A stretch of DNA of 64,000 nt from Anaeromyxobacteraceae bacterium (lineage in GTDB: Bacteria > Myxococcota > Myxococcia > Myxococcales > Anaeromyxobacteraceae), in contig JASGHJ010000001.1 of the NCBI GenBank assembly GCA_047602405.1, positions 1,344,001 to 1,408,000 of the forward strand, in the 5' to 3' direction. Both the position numbers and the translations under genes were made by a program. Below are positions 66 to 8,900 of the stretch, in pieces (position 1 is the first letter of the stretch; each line of letters begins with the position of its first letter). A model generated the notes under the pieces. That model worked only from the letters and a program-made list of their open reading frames with translations. It was not told the origin of the DNA and did not search any database.

Positions 66-1025
66 GTGGGACGGCTCGCGATCGGCGTGGACCTGGGCGG
101 GACGAACGCGCGCGCGGCGGTGGTCGACGCCGACACCGGCGAGATCGTGTCCGCGCACAAGGAGCCCCTGCACGATCGCGCCCCGCTCTCCGTGGTCCGG
201 GTGGTGAAGGGCGCGGTGGAGCAGGCGGCCCGCTCGGCCGGCATCCCGGTGGCGGGCTCGGTGGGCGTCGGCGTCGCCGGCCAGTGCCTCGGCCGGACCG
301 GCGTGGTGCTGAACGCCCCGAACCTCGGCTGGCGCGACGTCGCCTTCGGCGACCTCCTCTCGGTGGCGCTCGGCGTCCCGGTGCGGATCGCGAACGACCT
401 CTCGGTCGCCGCCTGGGGCGAGAAGTGCTTCGGCGCGGCGCGCGGGCTCGACGAGGTCGCGCTCGTGTTCGTCGGCTCCGGCGTCGGCTCCGGGCTCATC
501 CTCGGCGGCCGCCTCCACAACGGCGCCACCGGCGTCGCGGCGGAGTTCGGGCACATCAAGGTGCGGCCCGCGCGCCTCACGACCCGCGCGCGGGTGTGCG
601 GCTGCGGCGAGACCGGCTGCCTCGAGGCGTACACCTCCGGCATGAACGTCGCCGCGCGCGTGCGCGAGGAGCTCGCGGCGGGCGCCGTCACGAAGGTGCG
701 GGACCTCGCCGGCGGCGACCTCGCGCGCGTGAACGCCTCGCTCGTGGACGACGCGGCGCGCGCCGGCGACCCCTACGCCCGGGAGCTCTGGGACGAGGTC
801 GGCGAGCTCCTCGGCACCGCGATCGCGAACCTGGTGACCCTCCTCAACCCTTCCCGGCTGATCCTGGGCGGCGGCGTCCTCCTGGGGGCCCCGACCCTCG
901 CCGGGCTCGTCCGCGGGCACATCGACGCCCATGTCTCGCGCTCCGCCGCTCGTGCACTCACGGTGGAGCGCGCCGGGCTCGGCGACGACGCCGGCGTGAT
1001 CGGCGCCGCCGTGCTCGACGGCTGA
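66..1025 (+). CDS. ROK family sugar kinase (glucokinase-like)
   Basis: GVDLGGT ATP motif, AND..AAWGE, GSGVGSG, AEFGH and CGCGETGCLE zinc motif. Confidence 0.93.
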   Translation: MGRLAIGVDLGGTNARAAVVDADTGEIVSAHKEPLHDRAPLSVVRVVKGAVEQAARSAGIPVAGSVGVGVAGQCLGRTGVVLNAPNLGWRDVAFGDLLSVALGVPVRIANDLSVAAWGEKCFGAARGLDEVALVFVGSGVGSGLILGGRLHNGATGVAAEFGHIKVRPARLTTRARVCGCGETGCLEAYTSGMNVAARVREELAAGAVTKVRDLAGGDLARVNASLVDDAARAGDPYARELWDEVGELLGTAIANLVTLLNPSRLILGGGVLLGAPTLAGLVRGHIDAHVSRSAARALTVERAGLGDDAGVIGAAVLDG

Positions 1026-1234
1026 ACCCTGGTATTCGCTGCTTTCCCAGGCATCCTCGGTCCGTGAACGCATACCCGTGGTGCGATATGCGCGCGCCGC
1101 ATGTCGTACGGTGGGTGACAGTCTCGGAGCGTATCGATCACGGCGCGTGAAGTGGACTCATCCGATCCGGCCCACTGCGTCAGGCACCCGGTTGGATCGC
1201 TCGGCAGATCGGGACGATCGCGGATGAGAAAAAG

Positions 1235-1277
1235 GCGTGTCGCTTCCTTGACGAGCTTGATCGCGACACGCTAACCT
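1235..1277 (+). promoter_or_regulatory. Putative sigma70 promoter TTGACG-N18-TAACCT with inverted repeat GCGTGTCGC-N19-GCGACACGC flanking the -35
   Basis: TTGACG 1248-1253, TAACCT 1272-1277; repeat arms at 1235-1243 and 1263-1271. Confidence 0.55.
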
Positions 1278-1344
1278 CCGTCGCAGTTGTCCATTCTTGA
1301 AAGTCCATCGACTTCGAATGGACGTTCCGAGGAGGGAACACCAG

Positions 1345-1410
1345 ATGGCGAAGAAGACCGCGAAGAAGAAGGCCACCAAGAAGAAGGGCGCGAAGAAGGG
1401 CAAGAAGTAG
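1345..1410 (+). CDS. Lysine-rich micro-protein MAKKTAKKKATKKKGAKKGKK (21 aa), absent from the ORF track
   Basis: SD GAGGAGGG at 1329-1336, ATG 1345, TAG 1408-1410, all codons G/C-ending, flanked by promoter and terminator. Confidence 0.75.
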   Translation: MAKKTAKKKATKKKGAKKGKK

Positions 1411-1434
1411 CTTCTCGCACCAACGTGGTTCGCC

Positions 1435-1464
1435 GCGGCCGCCTCCGGGCGGCCGCTGCATTTT
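1435..1464 (+). terminator. Probable intrinsic terminator of the micro-gene
   Basis: Stem GCGGCCGCC-TCCG-GGCGGCCGC (1435-1456) followed by TGCATTTT. Confidence 0.65.
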
Positions 1465-1500
1465 CGGGCTCCGGTCCGCTCGCCCTCTGCCCTGTCGCTC

Positions 1501-1569
1501 GTCCTTCGACTTCGTTCATCCTGAGCGTAGCCGCCGAAGGCGGCGGAGTCGAAGGACTCAGGATGAGCG
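1501..1569. repeat. REP-like palindromic element, family A
   Basis: GTCCTTCGACTTCG/CGGAGTCGAAGGAC and CGTTCATCCTGAG/CTCAGGATGAGCG interleaved inverted repeats around a GCCGCC-GAA-GGCGGC hairpin; related units at 10500-10620. Confidence 0.7.
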
Positions 1570-1587
1570 GCCAAGAGGTTGCCCGGA

Positions 1588-3114
1588 ATGTCACTCGACG
1601 CCAGAGAGCTCGCCGCGATCGTCGCGGAGCTCGCCCCGCTCGCGGGCGCGCGGCTCTCCGAGGTGCGGGTCCACGCCGAGCGGGCGCTGACGCTCGAGCT
1701 CGCGACGCCGGCGGGCGCGGTCCACCTCCTCCTCTCCGCGGAGCCCGACGTCACCCGGCTCCACGTCGCGACCCGGCGGCCGCCGCGGCTCGACGAGCCG
1801 CTCGCCTTCCAGGTCGTGCTCCGCCGGGAGCTCGCCGGCGCGCGCCTCACGGCGGTCGACCTCGCCCCGGGCGACCGGGTGGTCTCGCTCGTCTTCGCCG
1901 CGGCGGGCGGCGAGCGCCGCCTCGTCGCCGAGCTGACCGGGCGCCACGGCAACCTCGTCCTCGTCGGCGCCGACGGCCTCGTGCTCGCGACCGCGGGCCG
2001 GAACCTGTCGCAGCGGCGCGAGCTCGTGCCGGGGAAGCCGTACGCGGCTGCGTCTCCGGGGGGCTCGGCGCCCCCCGCCCCGTCGAGCGAGGCTCGCCCG
2101 GGCCCCACCCCCGCCGGGCAGCGCCCCGGCCCCGTCGGGCCCGACCGCGGCCGCTTCGCGCCCGACCCCGCCTCGGCGTTCCCCCTCTCGGCGGCGGTCG
2201 AGCGCCACTACCTCGCCGTCGAGGAGGAGCGCCGGCTCCAGGAGGCCCGCAAGCGCCTGCGGGAGCCGCTCCGCGCCGGCGCGGCCCGCCTCGGGCGCGC
2301 GCTCGAGAAGCTCGCCGACGAGGCCGCGCGCGTGCCCGCCGCCGAGGAGGACCGCCGGGTCGCCGACCTCCTCAAGACGAACCTCCACCGCGTGAAGCGC
2401 GGCATGGCCTCGGTGACGGTGACCGAGTGGACGGCGGAGGGCCCCCGGGAGGTCACGGTGGGCCTCGACCCCGCGCTCACCCCGCAGGCCAACATGGAGC
2501 GCGCCTACCGGCGCTACCGGCGCATCGTCGAGAGCGCGGCGCGCGTCGCGGCCCGCACCGCCGAGGTCGAGGCGAAGCTCGTCGCCGTGCGCGCGCTCCT
2601 CACCGCGCTCGACGGCGCGGCCCACGAGGACCTGCCGCGGCTCGAGCGCGAGGCGAGGCGGCTCGGCGCCGGGCCCCGTCCGCCGCCTCGCCCGAGGAAG
2701 CGCCGCGACGACGCGCCCGCGCTCCCCTACCGCGCCTTCCGCTCGCTCGCGGGCGTCGCGATCCTGGTCGGCAGGGGCGCCGCCCAGAACGACGCGCTCC
2801 GCAACCGGCACGCGCGCGGCAACGACCTCTGGCTGCACGCCCGCGGCGTGCCCGGCTCCCACGTCATCGTGCGGATGGGGAAGGGCACCGGCCCCGACCA
2901 GGAGACGCTCCTCGACGCGGCGCACCTCGCGGCCCACTTCTCCGACGCCCGCGGCGCGCCGCTCGTCGAGGTGGCCTGGACCCGGGTGAAGTACGTGAAG
3001 AAGCCGAAGGGCGCCGCGCCGGGCGCCGTCGAGTACCACCAGGAGAAGGTGCTCCCCCTCCGCGCCGAGCCCGGTCGCGTCGAGCGCCTGCTCGCCGAAG
3101 AAGAGACCACCTGA
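1588..3114 (+). CDS. rqcH: NFACT family ribosome quality-control protein (RqcH/FbpA/Rqc2)
   Basis: N-terminal NFACT-N motifs (DRVV, LVAELTGRHGNLVLV), coiled coil, LDPALTPQANMERAYRRY, C-terminal NFACT-R (ILVGR..QND, DLWLHARGVPGSHV); start placed at ATG 1588. Confidence 0.88.
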   Translation: MSLDARELAAIVAELAPLAGARLSEVRVHAERALTLELATPAGAVHLLLSAEPDVTRLHVATRRPPRLDEPLAFQVVLRRELAGARLTAVDLAPGDRVVSLVFAAAGGERRLVAELTGRHGNLVLVGADGLVLATAGRNLSQRRELVPGKPYAAASPGGSAPPAPSSEARPGPTPAGQRPGPVGPDRGRFAPDPASAFPLSAAVERHYLAVEEERRLQEARKRLREPLRAGAARLGRALEKLADEAARVPAAEEDRRVADLLKTNLHRVKRGMASVTVTEWTAEGPREVTVGLDPALTPQANMERAYRRYRRIVESAARVAARTAEVEAKLVAVRALLTALDGAAHEDLPRLEREARRLGAGPRPPPRPRKRRDDAPALPYRAFRSLAGVAILVGRGAAQNDALRNRHARGNDLWLHARGVPGSHVIVRMGKGTGPDQETLLDAAHLAAHFSDARGAPLVEVAWTRVKYVKKPKGAAPGAVEYHQEKVLPLRAEPGRVERLLAEEETT

Positions 3115-3183
3115 CCGCCTGCCCGGCCGGGTGAGAGGGCGGCCCTTGATGGGCGCGCGCCGGGCCGCTGTAGAATCCCGCGC

Positions 3184-3933
3184 GTGACGAAGCAGCAGGC
3201 CTCCCGCCAGCTCGCCCTGTTCGAGCCGGGCCGCACCCGCGAGACGCGCGCCTCCGCGCTCGAGCTCGCCGACACCCTCTCCGGGCTCCTGGGCGAGCGC
3301 GTGCGCCTCACCGTGCACGACAACCGCTCGACGATGGTCTCGTTCCGCCGGGAGGAGGGCGAGCTGCAGTACCGGGTGCACCACATGTTCCTCGAGGCGC
3401 CCGGCGAGGTGGTCGACGCGCTCGCGAGCTTCGCGGGGGGCCAGCGCCAGCCGCGCGGCGCCCGCAAGCGGGCCGGCCAGAAGATCGACGCCTTCGTGCG
3501 CCAGCACCGCGCGCGCATCGCGCCGCCCGACCTCGAGGGGCTGCAGCCGCGGGGGCGGGTCCACGACCTCGAGGCGATCTTCGACGCCCTGAACGCCCGC
3601 TGGTTCGAGAACCGGATCGAGGCCCGCATCGGCTGGGGCCCCGTCCGGCTCGGGCGCCGGCGCCGCACCGTGAAGACCGGCGTCTACGTCCACGACGGGA
3701 AGCTCATCCGCATCCACCCGACGCTCGACCGCCCCGAGGTGCCGGAGTTCTACGTCGCCGCGGTCGTCTTCCACGAGATGCTCCACCAGGCGGTGCCCGC
3801 GCGCGAGGTGAACGGCCGGCGCATCGTGCACGGCCCCGACTTTCGCCGTCTCGAGCGCGCCTACCCGGACCACGAGCGGGCCCGCCAGTGGGAGGAGCGC
3901 AACCTGGGGCTGCTCCTCTCCTCTCCCGCCTAG
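3184..3933 (+). CDS. SprT-like/M48-like zinc metallopeptidase-domain protein
   Basis: IRIHPTLD...VVFHEMLH (HExxH) ...HGPDFRRLE; TAGAAT -10 element 7 nt before the GTG. Confidence 0.7.
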   Translation: MTKQQASRQLALFEPGRTRETRASALELADTLSGLLGERVRLTVHDNRSTMVSFRREEGELQYRVHHMFLEAPGEVVDALASFAGGQRQPRGARKRAGQKIDAFVRQHRARIAPPDLEGLQPRGRVHDLEAIFDALNARWFENRIEARIGWGPVRLGRRRRTVKTGVYVHDGKLIRIHPTLDRPEVPEFYVAAVVFHEMLHQAVPAREVNGRRIVHGPDFRRLERAYPDHERARQWEERNLGLLLSSPA

Positions 3934-3992
3934 AACCGGGCGCGCGGGCCCGACCTGGGCCATGATGGAGATCCCAAGCCGCGCGGATCTCC

Positions 3993-5954
3993 ATGCCCCG
4001 CACCTCCGTCACCCTCGCCGCGCTCGTCCTCCTCGCGCTCGCCTCGCCGGGGTGCCTGTGGAGCCGCGGCACGCCGGAGGAGCCGATTGTCTCCCGGCTC
4101 GAGCTCCGCGGGGTGAAGCGGTTCGACCCGGACGAGGTCGCCGCCGTGCTCGCGACGCGCGGCCCGGAGGCGCAGCTCTTCCCGCCCCGGAAGATCGGCT
4201 ACCGGCTCGACCCCGACGCGCTCGCGGTGGACGCACGCCGGGTGGAGGCCTGGTACCGCGACCGCGGGTACTTCGGCGCGAAGGTGGGCGGCGTCGAGGT
4301 GGTGCCGGACGGGGCGGGGCGGGCGAAGGTCGTCATGACCGTGAAGGAGGGCGACCCGGTCAAGGTGCGCTCCGTCGCGATGGACGGCCTCCGGGAGGCG
4401 CCCGAGGCGATGGAGCGGCTGGGGCGGGCTCCGCTCGAGGTCGGGGACGTCTTCAGCGTGGCGGCGTACGACGCCACGCGGGACGCGATCCTCTCCGCGC
4501 TGAAGGGCACCGGCTGGCCGACGGCCGAGGTGACCCAGCGCGCGCGGGTGCTGCCCGACGAGGGCGCGGTCGAGGTCACCTACGAGGTGAAGCCCGGCCC
4601 GCGGCTCCGCTTCGGGCCCATCTTCGTCGCCGGCACCTCCGCCGTGTCGCGCGCGCTCATCCGCGACCAGGCCACCGCCGACGTGAAGACCGGAGAGTGG
4701 TACGACGCCCGGAAGCTCGAGCTCGCGCAGGCCCGGGTGTTCGCCCTGGGCGTCTTCTCGGGCGTGCGGGTGACGACCGGCGCGCCCACGCCGGGCGAGG
4801 CCGCGGTGCCCGTCGTGATCGCCGTGCGCGAGGCGCCGTTCCGCACGCTCCGCCTCGGCCCGAGCATCGGCATCGAGACCACGCGCTGGGAGGCGCGGGG
4901 CGTCGCGGGCTGGACGCACCGGAACTTCGGCGGCGACCTGCGCCGGGTCAGCGTCGACGGGCGGGTGGGCTACGCGTGGCTGCCGACCGCGCTCTCGGCG
5001 GCCCGCAACCCGAACGCCGACGGCGTGCGCGTCGGCTGGGTCGGTGAGCTCGCGCTCGAGTACGCGCAGCCGGCCGCGTTCACGCGCTACGTCGACACGA
5101 GCGCGAAGCTCGACGTCGAGAAGGGCATCGAGCTCGCGTACCGGTTCTGGGCGCAGCGGCTCCAGCTCGGCCTCCCGCTGCGCTTCTCGCCGCGCTGGAC
5201 GCTCGTGCCCTCCTACAACGTCGAGGTCTACGAGCTCTCCGACGTCCCCTCCGGCGACTCCACGAGCCAGCGGCCCGTGCTCGAGAACTGCCCGAACACG
5301 GTCTGCCTCCTCTCGTACCTCGAGCAGCGGATCGCGTTCGACCACCGCGACAGCCCGGTCGAGACCCGCAGCGGCTTCTACGCCGCCATCGCCGTGCAGG
5401 AGGGCGTGAACCTCGGCGGCTACGGCTACCGGTACCTGCGCGTCCTGCCCGAGCTGCGCGGCTTCGTGCCGCTCGGCCCGCGCACCGTGGTGGCGGGGCG
5501 GGCGCGCGGCGGGGCGCTCGTGCCGGTGAACGAGAACGGCAACCCGCCCATCGTCGCCCGCTTCTTCGCCGGCGGGCCGAGCTCGAACCGCGGCTTCACG
5601 ACCCGCGGGCTCTCGCCGATGGAGAACGGCGTGCCCATCGGCGGGAACGGCCTGCTCGAGGGCTCGCTGGAGCTGCGCCAGGGGCTCCTCGGCGCGCTCT
5701 CCGGCGTGCTGTTCACGGACGTGGGGCGCGTGCTCGGGTCGGGCGGCGCGCCGAGCGCGTACCAGGAGGTGCTCGACGTCTCTCGCCTCGAGCTCGCGGT
5801 GGGCGGCGGGCTACGCTACGCGACCCCCTTCGGGCCGGTGCGGCTCGACGTGGGCCTCAGGCCCCGCCGTTTCACCGAGGTGCACGGCTTCCGGAGCCTC
5901 TTCGGCGGGCAGTTCCCCGGCGCGGTGCACATCTCGATCGGGGAGGCGTTCTGA
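3993..5954 (+). CDS. tamA: Omp85 family protein TamA/BamA (POTRA domains + beta-barrel)
   Basis: Signal peptide (possible lipobox PGC), POTRA-like repeats, RFFAGG..SNRGF, GLRYATPFGPVRLDVG, C-terminal ISIGEAF; coupled to tamB. Confidence 0.85.
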   Translation: MPRTSVTLAALVLLALASPGCLWSRGTPEEPIVSRLELRGVKRFDPDEVAAVLATRGPEAQLFPPRKIGYRLDPDALAVDARRVEAWYRDRGYFGAKVGGVEVVPDGAGRAKVVMTVKEGDPVKVRSVAMDGLREAPEAMERLGRAPLEVGDVFSVAAYDATRDAILSALKGTGWPTAEVTQRARVLPDEGAVEVTYEVKPGPRLRFGPIFVAGTSAVSRALIRDQATADVKTGEWYDARKLELAQARVFALGVFSGVRVTTGAPTPGEAAVPVVIAVREAPFRTLRLGPSIGIETTRWEARGVAGWTHRNFGGDLRRVSVDGRVGYAWLPTALSAARNPNADGVRVGWVGELALEYAQPAAFTRYVDTSAKLDVEKGIELAYRFWAQRLQLGLPLRFSPRWTLVPSYNVEVYELSDVPSGDSTSQRPVLENCPNTVCLLSYLEQRIAFDHRDSPVETRSGFYAAIAVQEGVNLGGYGYRYLRVLPELRGFVPLGPRTVVAGRARGGALVPVNENGNPPIVARFFAGGPSSNRGFTTRGLSPMENGVPIGGNGLLEGSLELRQGLLGALSGVLFTDVGRVLGSGGAPSAYQEVLDVSRLELAVGGGLRYATPFGPVRLDVGLRPRRFTEVHGFRSLFGGQFPGAVHISIGEAF

Positions 5955-8900
5955 TGCGGGCGCTGCGCCTCACGCTCGCGATCATGGGCTGGACGTTCGT
6001 CGTGGCGGCGGCGCTCGCGGGCGTCTCGATCTCGGCGGCCGTGCTCTGGGCGCGCACGCCCGCCGGCCGGGAGATGGTCGCCTCGCAGGTGGTCGGCCTC
6101 CTCGACCGGCAGCTCGCCGGGCGGTTCACGCTCGGCAGCGTGGGCGTCCTGCCCGGCGGCGAGGTGGAGCTCCGCGACCTCAAGGTCTACGACCCCGACG
6201 AGCGCCTCGTGCTCGAGGTGGGCCGCGCCTCGGTGGGCGCCGACGTGACGCGCCTGCGGGCGCGGGTCGTCGCCGTCTCGCTCGAGCTCGACGGCGCGAA
6301 GGTGCTGCTCGACGAGGGCGAGGACGGGAGCCTCTCGCTGGCGCGCGCCTTCGCGCCGACCGAGCCCCCGGCGCCGGACGCGCCCTCCGCCGGGCCCACC
6401 TTCACGATCCGGGTGAACCGCCTCGCGCTCCGCGACGGCTCGGTCTGGTGGCGCGCGGCGGACGGTGCGACGCGGCTCGACGCCCGCGGCCTCGCGATCG
6501 ACGGGCGCGGCGCGTACGGGCCCGGGCTCGCCGAGCTCGACCTCGCCGCGCGGGCGCAGGTGGACGTGCCGGTGGAGGCGCCGTTCGAGCTCGGGGTGCG
6601 GGCGGCGCGCGACGCCGACCGGCTCTGGCTGCCGGTGCTCAGGGCCCGGCTCGGGGCGACGGCGCTCGAGGCGCTCGGGGAGGGCGACCTCGCGAAGGGG
6701 AGCGGGAGGCTCGCGGTGACCCGGCTCGCCGTCGACCGGGGCCAGGCGCGCGCGCTCGCGCCGGCGGCGGGCGACGGCGCGGAATCTCGGCGCGCGGGCG
6801 TACGCGGAGACCGACGGGAAGCTCGCGACCGCCGCCGTCGTCGTCGCGCCCGCCGGCGCGGGGGGCTCGGCGCGGGCGGCGGTGGCGGCGCGTCCGGGCG
6901 ACCTCGTCTCGGGCGCCACGCCGGCCGCCGGGCTCGACCTCGCGCTCGAGGGGCTCGACCCCTCCCGGCTCCTCGCGGCGCTGCCGGAGGGCGCGGTCAC
7001 GCTCTCCGCCCACGGCGGCGCCGCCGGCACCTCGCTCGACGACCTCCGCGGCCAGCTCGAGGCCCGCCTCGAGCGGTCCACGCTCCGGGGCGTCGCGATC
7101 GGTCCGGGCGACGTGAAGGCGAGGGCGGACCGCGGGGACGTGGACGTCTCCCGGATCGTGCTCGCCGCGCCGGGGGTCGCGATCGACGGCGCGGGCCGGT
7201 GGCGAAGGAAGGGGAGCGTGTCCGGACGGCTCACCGTGGATGCCGCCGACCTCGCCGCGGCCGCTGGCGCCGCGGCCCGGCTCTCCGGCCGCCCCGTCCC
7301 GCCCGCGTCCGGCTCCGTCCGGCTCGACGCCACCGTGTCCGGCACCGGGCAGGCCCCGGCCCTGTCCGGCACGCTCGCCTCGCCGGCGCTCGCCTGGGAC
7401 GGCACCACGGTGCGCGGCCTGCACGCCCGCGTGAGCGCCGCGGGGCCCGCGAGCGCCGCCCGCGGCGCCGTCGAGCTCACCGCCGACGCGCTGCGCAGCG
7501 GCGCCGAGGATCTGGCCCGCAAGCTCGGCCTCACCGCGCGCCTCGAGGGCGACGAGGCGAGCGTGTCCGGCACCGCCGTGGTGCCCTCGCTCGGCGCCCA
7601 GCCGGTGGCCCTCTCGGGACGCGGCACGCTCGACGGCAGGCGCGAGAAGCTCGCGGTGCGGGAGCTCTCGCTCGGCTGGCCCGGGGAGCGCTGGGCGCTC
7701 GCGGCGCCGGCGACGGTGACGCTCGGCGGCCCGTCGGTCGATCGGCTCGAGCTCGAGAGCGGGGACCAGCGGCTCGTCCTCGAGGGCGGCCTCGGGACCT
7801 CCCGCGCCGGCCCGAAGGTGGCCGGGACGGCGCTCGACGCGCGCGTGCAGGCCGTGCGGCTCGACCTCGCGCGGCTGCCGCGGGGCCTCGTGCCGGCGGG
7901 GCTCGGCGGGCGCGCAGAGCTCGACGCCCGCGCGACCGGCACGAGCAGGCGGCCGGTCGCGGCGGCGAGGTTCCGCGTGATCGACGGGACCGCCCAGGGG
8001 TTCGACGGGCTCGGCGCCCAGGGCGAGCTCGGCTGGGACGGCCGCGAGGGGCGCGCCCGGGTCACCGCGCAGCTCACCCGCAAGCAGGGCGGGCGCGTCG
8101 AGGTGAGCGCGGACCTGCCCGTGCCGCTCGCCCGGCGCCGCCCGGAGCCGGTCTCCGTGTGGGTGACGGCCGAGGCGCTCCCGCTCGCCGAGGCGCTCCT
8201 CGCGGCCGGCGAGGACCTCCCGCTGGACGGGAGGCTCGCGGCGTCGCTCCGCCTCCAGGGCACGACCGCGGACCCCGCGCTCACGGCCGAGGTGAGCCTC
8301 GCCGACGGCGTGTGGGACGACCTCTACCCGCTCGAGGGCAAGGTCGCGCTCGCCGCGCCCGGCGATCGCGCCGCGCTCGACGCGACGCTCGTGGTGGACG
8401 GTGGCCGGGCGCTCACCGCGCACGCCGAGCTCCCGCTCGACCTCGCCGAGGCCCTGGCGCGCCCGGCGGCGGTGGCCGAGAAGCTCCCGAGGGCGCCGCT
8501 CCGCGCGGAGGTCACGGTCCCCTCGTTCGATCTCCTCCTCCTCGCCGGCGCGGTCGGCGTGCCCCGCGATCTGACCGGCACGCTCGACGGCGCGGCCCAC
8601 CTCGAGGGCACGCTCGAGGCGCCGCGCGGCACGATCGGCGCCGAGGTGCAGCGGGTCGCCCTCGCCGGCTACCGCGAGCTCGCCGCGCGCGCGGAGGTCC
8701 GGCTGCTCGGGGACCAGGTGGCGCTGCAGGCCACCGCCTCCGTCGCGGGTGCCGAGCTGCTGCGCGCGAAGGGCTCGCTCGCGGGCGCGCCCGAGCGGCT
8801 CGCGCGGCCCGGGGCGCTCGCGAAGGCGAGGGTGACGCTGCACGCGGAGGTGCCCACGGTGGACCTCTCCCGTGCCTCCTCGGCCGACGTCGCCCTCGGG

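Follow-up and report, generated by a model that had tools for sequence, protein, structure and literature searches.

A lysine-rich micro-gene upstream of rqcH as the putative minimal form of an elastic histone H1-tail-like gene of Myxococcota

Introduction

Among described bacterial proteins, the closest to the one considered here are those of the HC2 type (PF07382), including chlamydial Hc2/HctB and the Burkholderia-type H1-like proteins (NF038053), which stand alone and consist solely of lysine-, alanine-, threonine- and proline-rich repeats. Hc2 is a late, compaction-stage protein. Comparable K/A/P-rich, disordered stretches form tails on the folded targeting domains of Anaeromyxobacter CarD, Pseudomonas AlgP and PhaF: in the accessible text of the respective papers, the H1-like tail of CarD is described as its DNA-binding domain (PMC9304148), and AlgP carries KPAA repeats, presumed to bind DNA, and an H1-like tail that acts at polyphosphate granules (PMC11894788).

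Here we analyze a locus at the start of a 64,000-nucleotide stretch of DNA (the window) from an Anaeromyxobacteraceae bacterium, where an earlier note had proposed a stand-alone lysine-rich micro-gene directly upstream of rqcH. As in the HC2 proteins, K/A/T/P repeats make up the product from end to end, but the window peptide is one-tenth of their size and scores nothing against the family. It likewise resembles the tails of CarD, which is found in the same genus, and of AlgP and PhaF, with the difference that here the tail is the whole gene. The literature searched contains no description of this rqcH-upstream gene, although supplements and subscription papers may hold more; the note's term "undescribed" thus stands for the locus in that literature and falls for the H1-like protein class, which is known.

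Results

The locus carries a compact cassette on the forward strand. A housekeeping-sigma-type promoter, TTGACG-N18-TAACCT (1248..1277; -35 at 1248-1253, -10 at 1272-1277), which a consensus scanner did not list because its -10 matches TATAAT at only three of six positions, is followed by a predicted 5' UTR stem-loop with a 7-pair helix (1289..1323) and a short hairpin with a 5-pair helix (1324..1339), whose loop holds the GAGGAG of the Shine-Dalgarno sequence (SD) GAGGAGGG (1329-1336). The micro-gene itself (1345..1410) runs for 21 codons from an ATG at 1345 to a TAG stop and encodes MAKKTAKKKATKKKGAKKGKK, with 12 lysines among its 21 residues (57%) and no Asp, Glu or aromatic residue; without its Met the product has 20 aa, a mass of ~2.16 kDa and a pI of ~11. 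An intrinsic terminator (1435..1464) follows, composed of a hairpin with a 9-bp GC stem (1435-1456) and a short T-tract, TGCATTTT, in which the T-run amounts to only four T (1461-1464). Promoter, SD, 21-codon ORF and GC hairpin with T-run are therefore all present as the earlier note had them. The constant 3' neighbor is rqcH of the NFACT family (1588..3114, forward strand), whose product exceeds the Pfam cut-offs for NFACT_N and NFACT-R, matches B. subtilis RqcH structures at E=4e-46 and starts at an ATG (1588) in agreement with the ortholog starts. Between terminator and rqcH, outside the cassette, lies a REP-like palindromic repeat (1496..1572) of a family with 70 BLAST matches within the bacterium's own genome; the insertion is missing from the nearest relative (L002). 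Further downstream, an SprT-like gene has TAGAAT a few bases 5' of its GTG start (window 3170-3186), a leaderless-type promoter.

The pattern TTGAC[AG]-N16-18-TAnnnT occurs at 44 sites in the 6.16-Mb genome, the micro-gene promoter among them, and the micro-gene has by far the highest lysine share (57%) of the SD-led Lys-rich ORFs listed genome-wide; the rarity of the promoter site, this lysine share and the recurrence of the cassette in the genus place it beyond chance. That all its lysine codons are AAG is true of the ORF and carries no information, since AAG accounts for 25,399 of the 25,614 Lys codons in the long ORFs of the same genome (99%). Three alternative frames were rejected: an in-frame ATG further upstream at 1318, giving 30 aa, and a TTG at 1297 have no SD and are in frame in some relatives only, and a 615-aa overlapping frame from 1287 resembles a GC shadow ORF.

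Of 36 genomes from the same genus, Anaeromyxobacter by the closest named RqcH relatives, 34 carry the cassette in full, and both misses are incomplete, G026 being also without an rqcH match and G035 having an rqcH that ends at the contig edge. The 35 genus loci read, which include our own, show no variation in either promoter hexamer or in the 18-nt spacing, and their frame, of 20-29 codons, ends 23-34 nt 5' of the terminator stem (22 TAG and 13 TAA stops); the earlier note had tied its reading to conservation of SD, frame and stop in relatives, and the SD, the ATG after it and the in-frame stop are kept in 35 of 35. Thirty distinct ORFs (714 codons) use only nine amino acids (K, A, T, P, V, G, R, S and M; 53% K, 22% A, 11% T, 6% P). 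AAG is found 379 times in frame versus once out of frame, its one-step neighbors GAG, CAG, AAC and AAT are absent from all 714 codons, and six close, overlapping pairs differ by 10 synonymous and 5 conservative changes. The peptide is under constraint at the protein level. On the RNA side, the 7-pair helix of the 5' UTR is 95.8% paired with two-sided changes at three pairs (28 sequences), and the stem-loop is likely mRNA-stabilizing; the 5-pair helix of the SD hairpin is 98.6% paired with zero two-sided changes, and the SD has a mean unpaired probability of 0.80. The terminator stem is found in 35 of 35 loci, with a T-tract of 3-6 nt and a mean pairing probability of 0.94 that drops below 0.75 in only three of the 35. 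The window ORF is a real, unannotated micro-gene whose promoter, structured leader, SD and terminator are conserved as one unit with it; an exact-sequence look-up of 15 family members in a 15-billion-protein collection found none of them.

A TCAC-N5-GTGA palindrome (1138..1150, 97 bp 5' of the -35) is a candidate regulator site: in 27 of the 35 genus loci its strict form occurs no more than 130 nt from the -35, against 0.12 expected by shuffling, and the distances cluster at 73, 82-86, 94-97, 105 and 115-117 bp, in steps of about a helical turn. GATC occupies positions 6-9 of the promoter spacer (window 1259-1262) in 34 of 35 loci; the 150 bp upstream contain six copies of it, compared with 5.4 per kb genome-wide; Dam methylation was dropped as an explanation for the spacer GATC, no D12 (Dam-family) methylase being found above cut-off.

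The synteny check across Myxococcota that the earlier note had suggested was run as a survey anchored on rqcH, in which the upstream DNA was read, and it places the same kind of gene upstream of rqcH in many families, kin among the surveyed loci not being independent. Among other families of the order, 15 of 19 rqcH-bearing genomes have a Lys-rich gene ahead of it (13 whole, of 27-202 aa, and two interrupted by contig ends). In a phylum search that found rqcH in 124 of 161 genomes, 30 returned loci and 55 further chosen ones were read. There such a gene precedes rqcH in all six loci from other genera of the same family (21-42 aa), in 18 of 21 further family f6 loci (26-79 aa), in the single locus from another order (83 aa) and in 14 of 42 loci from other classes, where two incomplete loci were left out. 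These 14 fall into families f14 (9/12), f20 (2/2) and f16 (3/3; 22-23 aa), with no such gene upstream of rqcH in f12 (0/15), f25 (0/4) and six other families (0/6); the f12 and f25 zeros concern the DNA upstream of rqcH, and copies elsewhere in these genomes are possible. A second, overlapping set yielded 56 positives among the 72 loci with enough upstream DNA, eight others being too short and an 18-mer having been added on recheck. Outside the phylum, no SD-led Lys-rich ORF was found near rqcH in 20 loci from the phylum of a Nitrospiraceae record or in 25 from Planctomycetota.

Lengths of the positional orthologs range from 18 to 202 aa around a single invariant column, and 108 distinct peptides (20-202 aa) share one composition. 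TTGAC-N17/18-TAnnnT and an SD precede most of the phylum-wide orthologs displayed, and adjacency to rqcH holds across ten or more Myxococcota families, the gene on the upstream side being variable (ROK, PGM, GH1, acyl-CoA dehydrogenase, PRT, RDD). Because the 21-mer has no significant alignment to the long form (E=18 against a 200-aa ortholog), orthology rests on position, promoter and composition, and on this footing the 21-residue peptide would be the minimal form of an elastic, histone-H1-tail-like gene of Myxococcota. A pattern search for unlinked copies in 28 genomes gave at least three pure Lys-rich genes among the 70 matches read. G040 (97% complete) and G052 (89%), with both NFACT families below cut-off, carry a 27-aa micro-gene that is assigned to the series by its identical architecture only. 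An NFACT match above cut-off is absent altogether from G040, G047, G052, G057 and G042 (two families of the order, 69-97% complete), which suggests loss of rqcH there. In the AT-rich family f16, the 22-23-aa peptides of L115, L128 and L129 start with Met-Ala-Cys, the series' only cysteine, and rqcH begins within a few bases 3' of the terminator.

Two of 12 scanned orthologs pass the 40-bit cut-off of the Pfam HC2 model, L032 with 55.6 bits and L036 with 46.4 bits, both of ~200 aa, and five more match it below cut-off. Neither curated NCBIfam model is reached: the best ortholog scores 40 of 135 bits for Hc2 (NF038052) and 42.8 of 80 bits for the Burkholderia H1-like family (NF038053). The window 21-mer itself matches no Pfam or NCBIfam family, and HC2 has no match in its own genome. 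With low-complexity sequence, an HC2 score may reflect convergence. In composition the series is of HC2 type, with K/A/T/P repeats, no globular domain and almost no acidic or aromatic residues; the ESM Atlas model of a 65-aa ortholog has a pLDDT of 0.43, and the peptide is likely disordered.

The ESM Atlas cluster of this 65-aa ortholog (76 members) is automatically named excinuclease ABC subunit A, and the accessible data of PMC6791715 likewise list as excinuclease A the M. xanthus gene MXAN_6302, of 240 bp, separated by 97 bp from MXAN_6301 (1,458 bp) downstream and lying opposite to a beta-glucosidase gene. This geometry is that of the family f6 loci, and MXAN6301 is given as a putative fibronectin-binding protein (PMC2875238, accessible part). 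From geometry and its position before this fibronectin-binding/NFACT gene, MXAN_6302 (MXAN_RS30530) is likely the M. xanthus ortholog, misnamed excinuclease; unlike the 21-aa window peptide it has 79 aa and is annotated as hypothetical or as excinuclease ABC subunit A. No main text in the literature searched mentions it, and the supplements of PMC8844925 and PMC10313047, as far as accessible, contain no row for the locus.

In the accessible transcriptome values of PMC6791715, MXAN_6302 stands at 6,197 and 6,653 RPKM in the 0-h replicates, with means over 0-96 h of 6,425, 5,344, 6,253, 5,480, 2,303, 1,521 and 1,387 RPKM. At 0 h seven ribosomal protein genes have 433-4,010 and tuf 2,365-3,241 RPKM, which puts MXAN_6302 above rpsO, rplK, rpsL, rpsU, rpsG, rplT, rpmH and both tuf genes. 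After 6 h of starvation it keeps 82-84% of its level, whereas the six ribosomal protein genes for which 6-h values are given fall to between about a tenth and a half, a drop that the authors attribute to the stringent response (PMC6791715); a stable leader could also account for MXAN_6302 missing it. MXAN_6301 (rqcH) lies near background at 30-74 RPKM, ~150-fold below MXAN_6302, and in these data does not track it. By 96 h of development MXAN_6302 mRNA is 4.6-fold lower, and it is marked "not reg" in glycerol sporulation (PMC2875238, accessible part). A protamine- or SASP-like role in dormancy, one reading of the earlier note's "protamine-like", is unsupported because the presumed ortholog drops in sporulation in the values available.

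RNA evidence from the window's own genus comes from one run (share 0.06), in which a metatranscriptome contig identical to a close relative extends from the leader across the terminator into rqcH at a depth of ~4, too shallow to rank expression. RNA contigs at depth 4-5 cover the end of the ROK gene and leader-ORF-rqcH, with none over the promoter region, where holes prove nothing. A high summed RNA depth over the ORF was discarded as a measure of expression, coming as it does from the lysine repeats of other organisms.

Discussion

We consider it probable, with some reserve, that the micro-gene encodes an abundant, sequence-nonspecific DNA-binding nucleoid protein in a minimal, H1-tail-like form. 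A strong housekeeping promoter, a protected leader and an exposed SD would yield mRNA in very large amounts, in line with the values for the probable ortholog in M. xanthus; the disordered polycation would neutralize and bridge DNA phosphates in the manner of H1 tails, Hc2 and the AlgP and CarD tails, and the repeat number would set the strength of compaction. The HC2-scoring orthologs, the composition and the phylum-wide locus lend support to the note's H1/Hc1-like nucleoid peptide, in which DNA binding is the presumed activity. In contrast to Hc2, MXAN_6302 as the likely ortholog has its highest accessible values during growth and early development. For the phylum as a whole it is quite possible that Myxococcota possess an overlooked, very highly expressed chromatin protein consisting of a linker-histone tail only, encoded at one ancestral locus and tuned tenfold in length down to 20 residues in Anaeromyxobacter.

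Binding to other polyanions is the alternative nearest to this reading, as RNA and polyphosphate would attract a peptide with 12 lysines no less than DNA does. A general counter-ion whose main targets are RNA, ribosome surfaces or polyphosphate granules, in effect a gene-encoded polyamine, would suit a composition without any specificity determinant, the action of the AlgP H1-like tail at polyphosphate granules reported in the accessible text of PMC11894788 and the persistence of the likely ortholog's mRNA in early starvation in the values available; it is nevertheless unlikely in our view, given that long orthologs score as HC2 and that the H1-like tail of CarD from the same genus is described, in the accessible text, as DNA-binding (PMC9304148). 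The association with rqcH leads to a role as a small ribosomal protein or as an RqcH cofactor acting on split 50S subunits, since the adjacency persists in at least ten families with changing upstream neighbors and, in the accessible part of PMC4075521, bacterial NFACT genes had no conserved neighborhood. The gene does share tiny size and strong basicity with such ribosomal proteins. Tiny basic ribosomal proteins of this sort, bTHX, bS22 and eL41, have a fixed length and sequence, however, unlike the elastic 18-202 aa without fixed sequence seen here, and MXAN_6302, as presumed ortholog, is not coregulated with ribosomal protein genes at 6 h in the available profile. Nor does the association hold in both directions: the 27-aa micro-gene of the same architecture occurs in G040 and G052 without NFACT above cut-off, and the Lys-rich ORF is absent near rqcH in the 20 and 25 loci of two other phyla and upstream of rqcH in all 15 family f12 loci. 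This reading is therefore improbable, and the ribosome-binding micro-protein of the earlier note is disfavored by length elasticity and by expression unlike that of ribosomal protein genes. The 21-mer has no PDB sequence match, which carries little weight at that length, and a plasmid search came back empty.

A role in cis appears less probable still. A polybasic leader peptide that stalls and thereby adjusts how much transcription reads through into rqcH would fit the constant order of ORF, terminator and rqcH with a short gap (median ~29 nt; 15-64 nt from the stem in 33 of 34 loci), a weak T-tract and the one RNA-library contig spanning leader, terminator and rqcH, though the latter is no proof of a single transcript. 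No alternative antiterminator fold coupled to the ORF emerged from equilibrium folding; the stem pairs at 0.94 on average with the stop 23-34 nt before it, leaders of 200 codons are implausible, and in the genomes of 33-39% GC A-runs are avoided in the lysine codons (AAG 26, AAA 8, longest run 6), the AAG:AAA ratio being 26:8 in frame and 25:24 in the neighboring frames. In the M. xanthus values available, rqcH mRNA does not follow MXAN_6302, although it lies near background there, and a similar micro-gene exists where rqcH was not found, so that such an attenuator is very improbable. We prefer to see rqcH as a probable passenger that lives on a small amount of transcription passing the terminator; the two genes would then have stayed side by side without any functional tie. 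The short gap, a -10-like box before only four of 34 rqcH starts and the ~150-fold lower rqcH level in M. xanthus favor such read-through; given an SD at 14 of the 34 starts and the four -10-like boxes, some rqcH copies may be independent. Scarcely credible, finally, are a chance ORF and a noncoding RNA that acts through its AAG repeats as a sponge for Hfq or CsrA. The structured leader, the separate terminator, the purine-rich triplets and a weak Rfam sX6 match (E=0.33, 14 bits versus a gathering score of 40) would accommodate a sponge, but stop-codon interchange, frame-locked AAG and the closed amino-acid alphabet speak for a translated frame, and the sponge reading falls because the genome, 98% complete, yields no match to Hfq or CsrA. 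The Rfam matches are at chance level only; sX6 itself is the mRNA of an 80-aa protein, and its being lysine-rich is not borne out by the accessible text of PMC3300014.

Taken as a whole, the earlier note thus holds where it saw a real micro-gene and an H1/Hc-like peptide, and gives way on the protamine-like, ribosomal and rqcH-leader proposals. What is new is a continuous series of 18-202 aa, from micro-gene to HC2-scoring protein at one position, together with a strongly transcribed, misannotated gene in the model organism M. xanthus, as far as the accessible data go, which makes the function of the class testable. Lys-rich micro-genes of this kind escape both gene callers and tryptic proteomics. 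If the nucleoid reading is true, myxobacterial chromatin would gain a major component and H1-tail function a lower size limit, the 20-residue Anaeromyxobacter form becoming a candidate for the smallest nucleoid-associated protein and MXAN_6302 a genetic handle on the polylysine micro-gene class.

Basic sequence of related character was also encountered away from this locus. G000 contains further SD-led small basic ORFs at C2:2630469(-) (36 aa) and C2:867851(+) (42 aa, with a similar one in L310), as well as a 111-aa protein with an H1-like tail at C2:2547004(-). Many myxobacterial proteins (L272, L300, L305, L324, L325) begin with an MAxKK Lys-rich leader fused to a folded domain, and some of these presumably resemble histone-fold or SWIB proteins.
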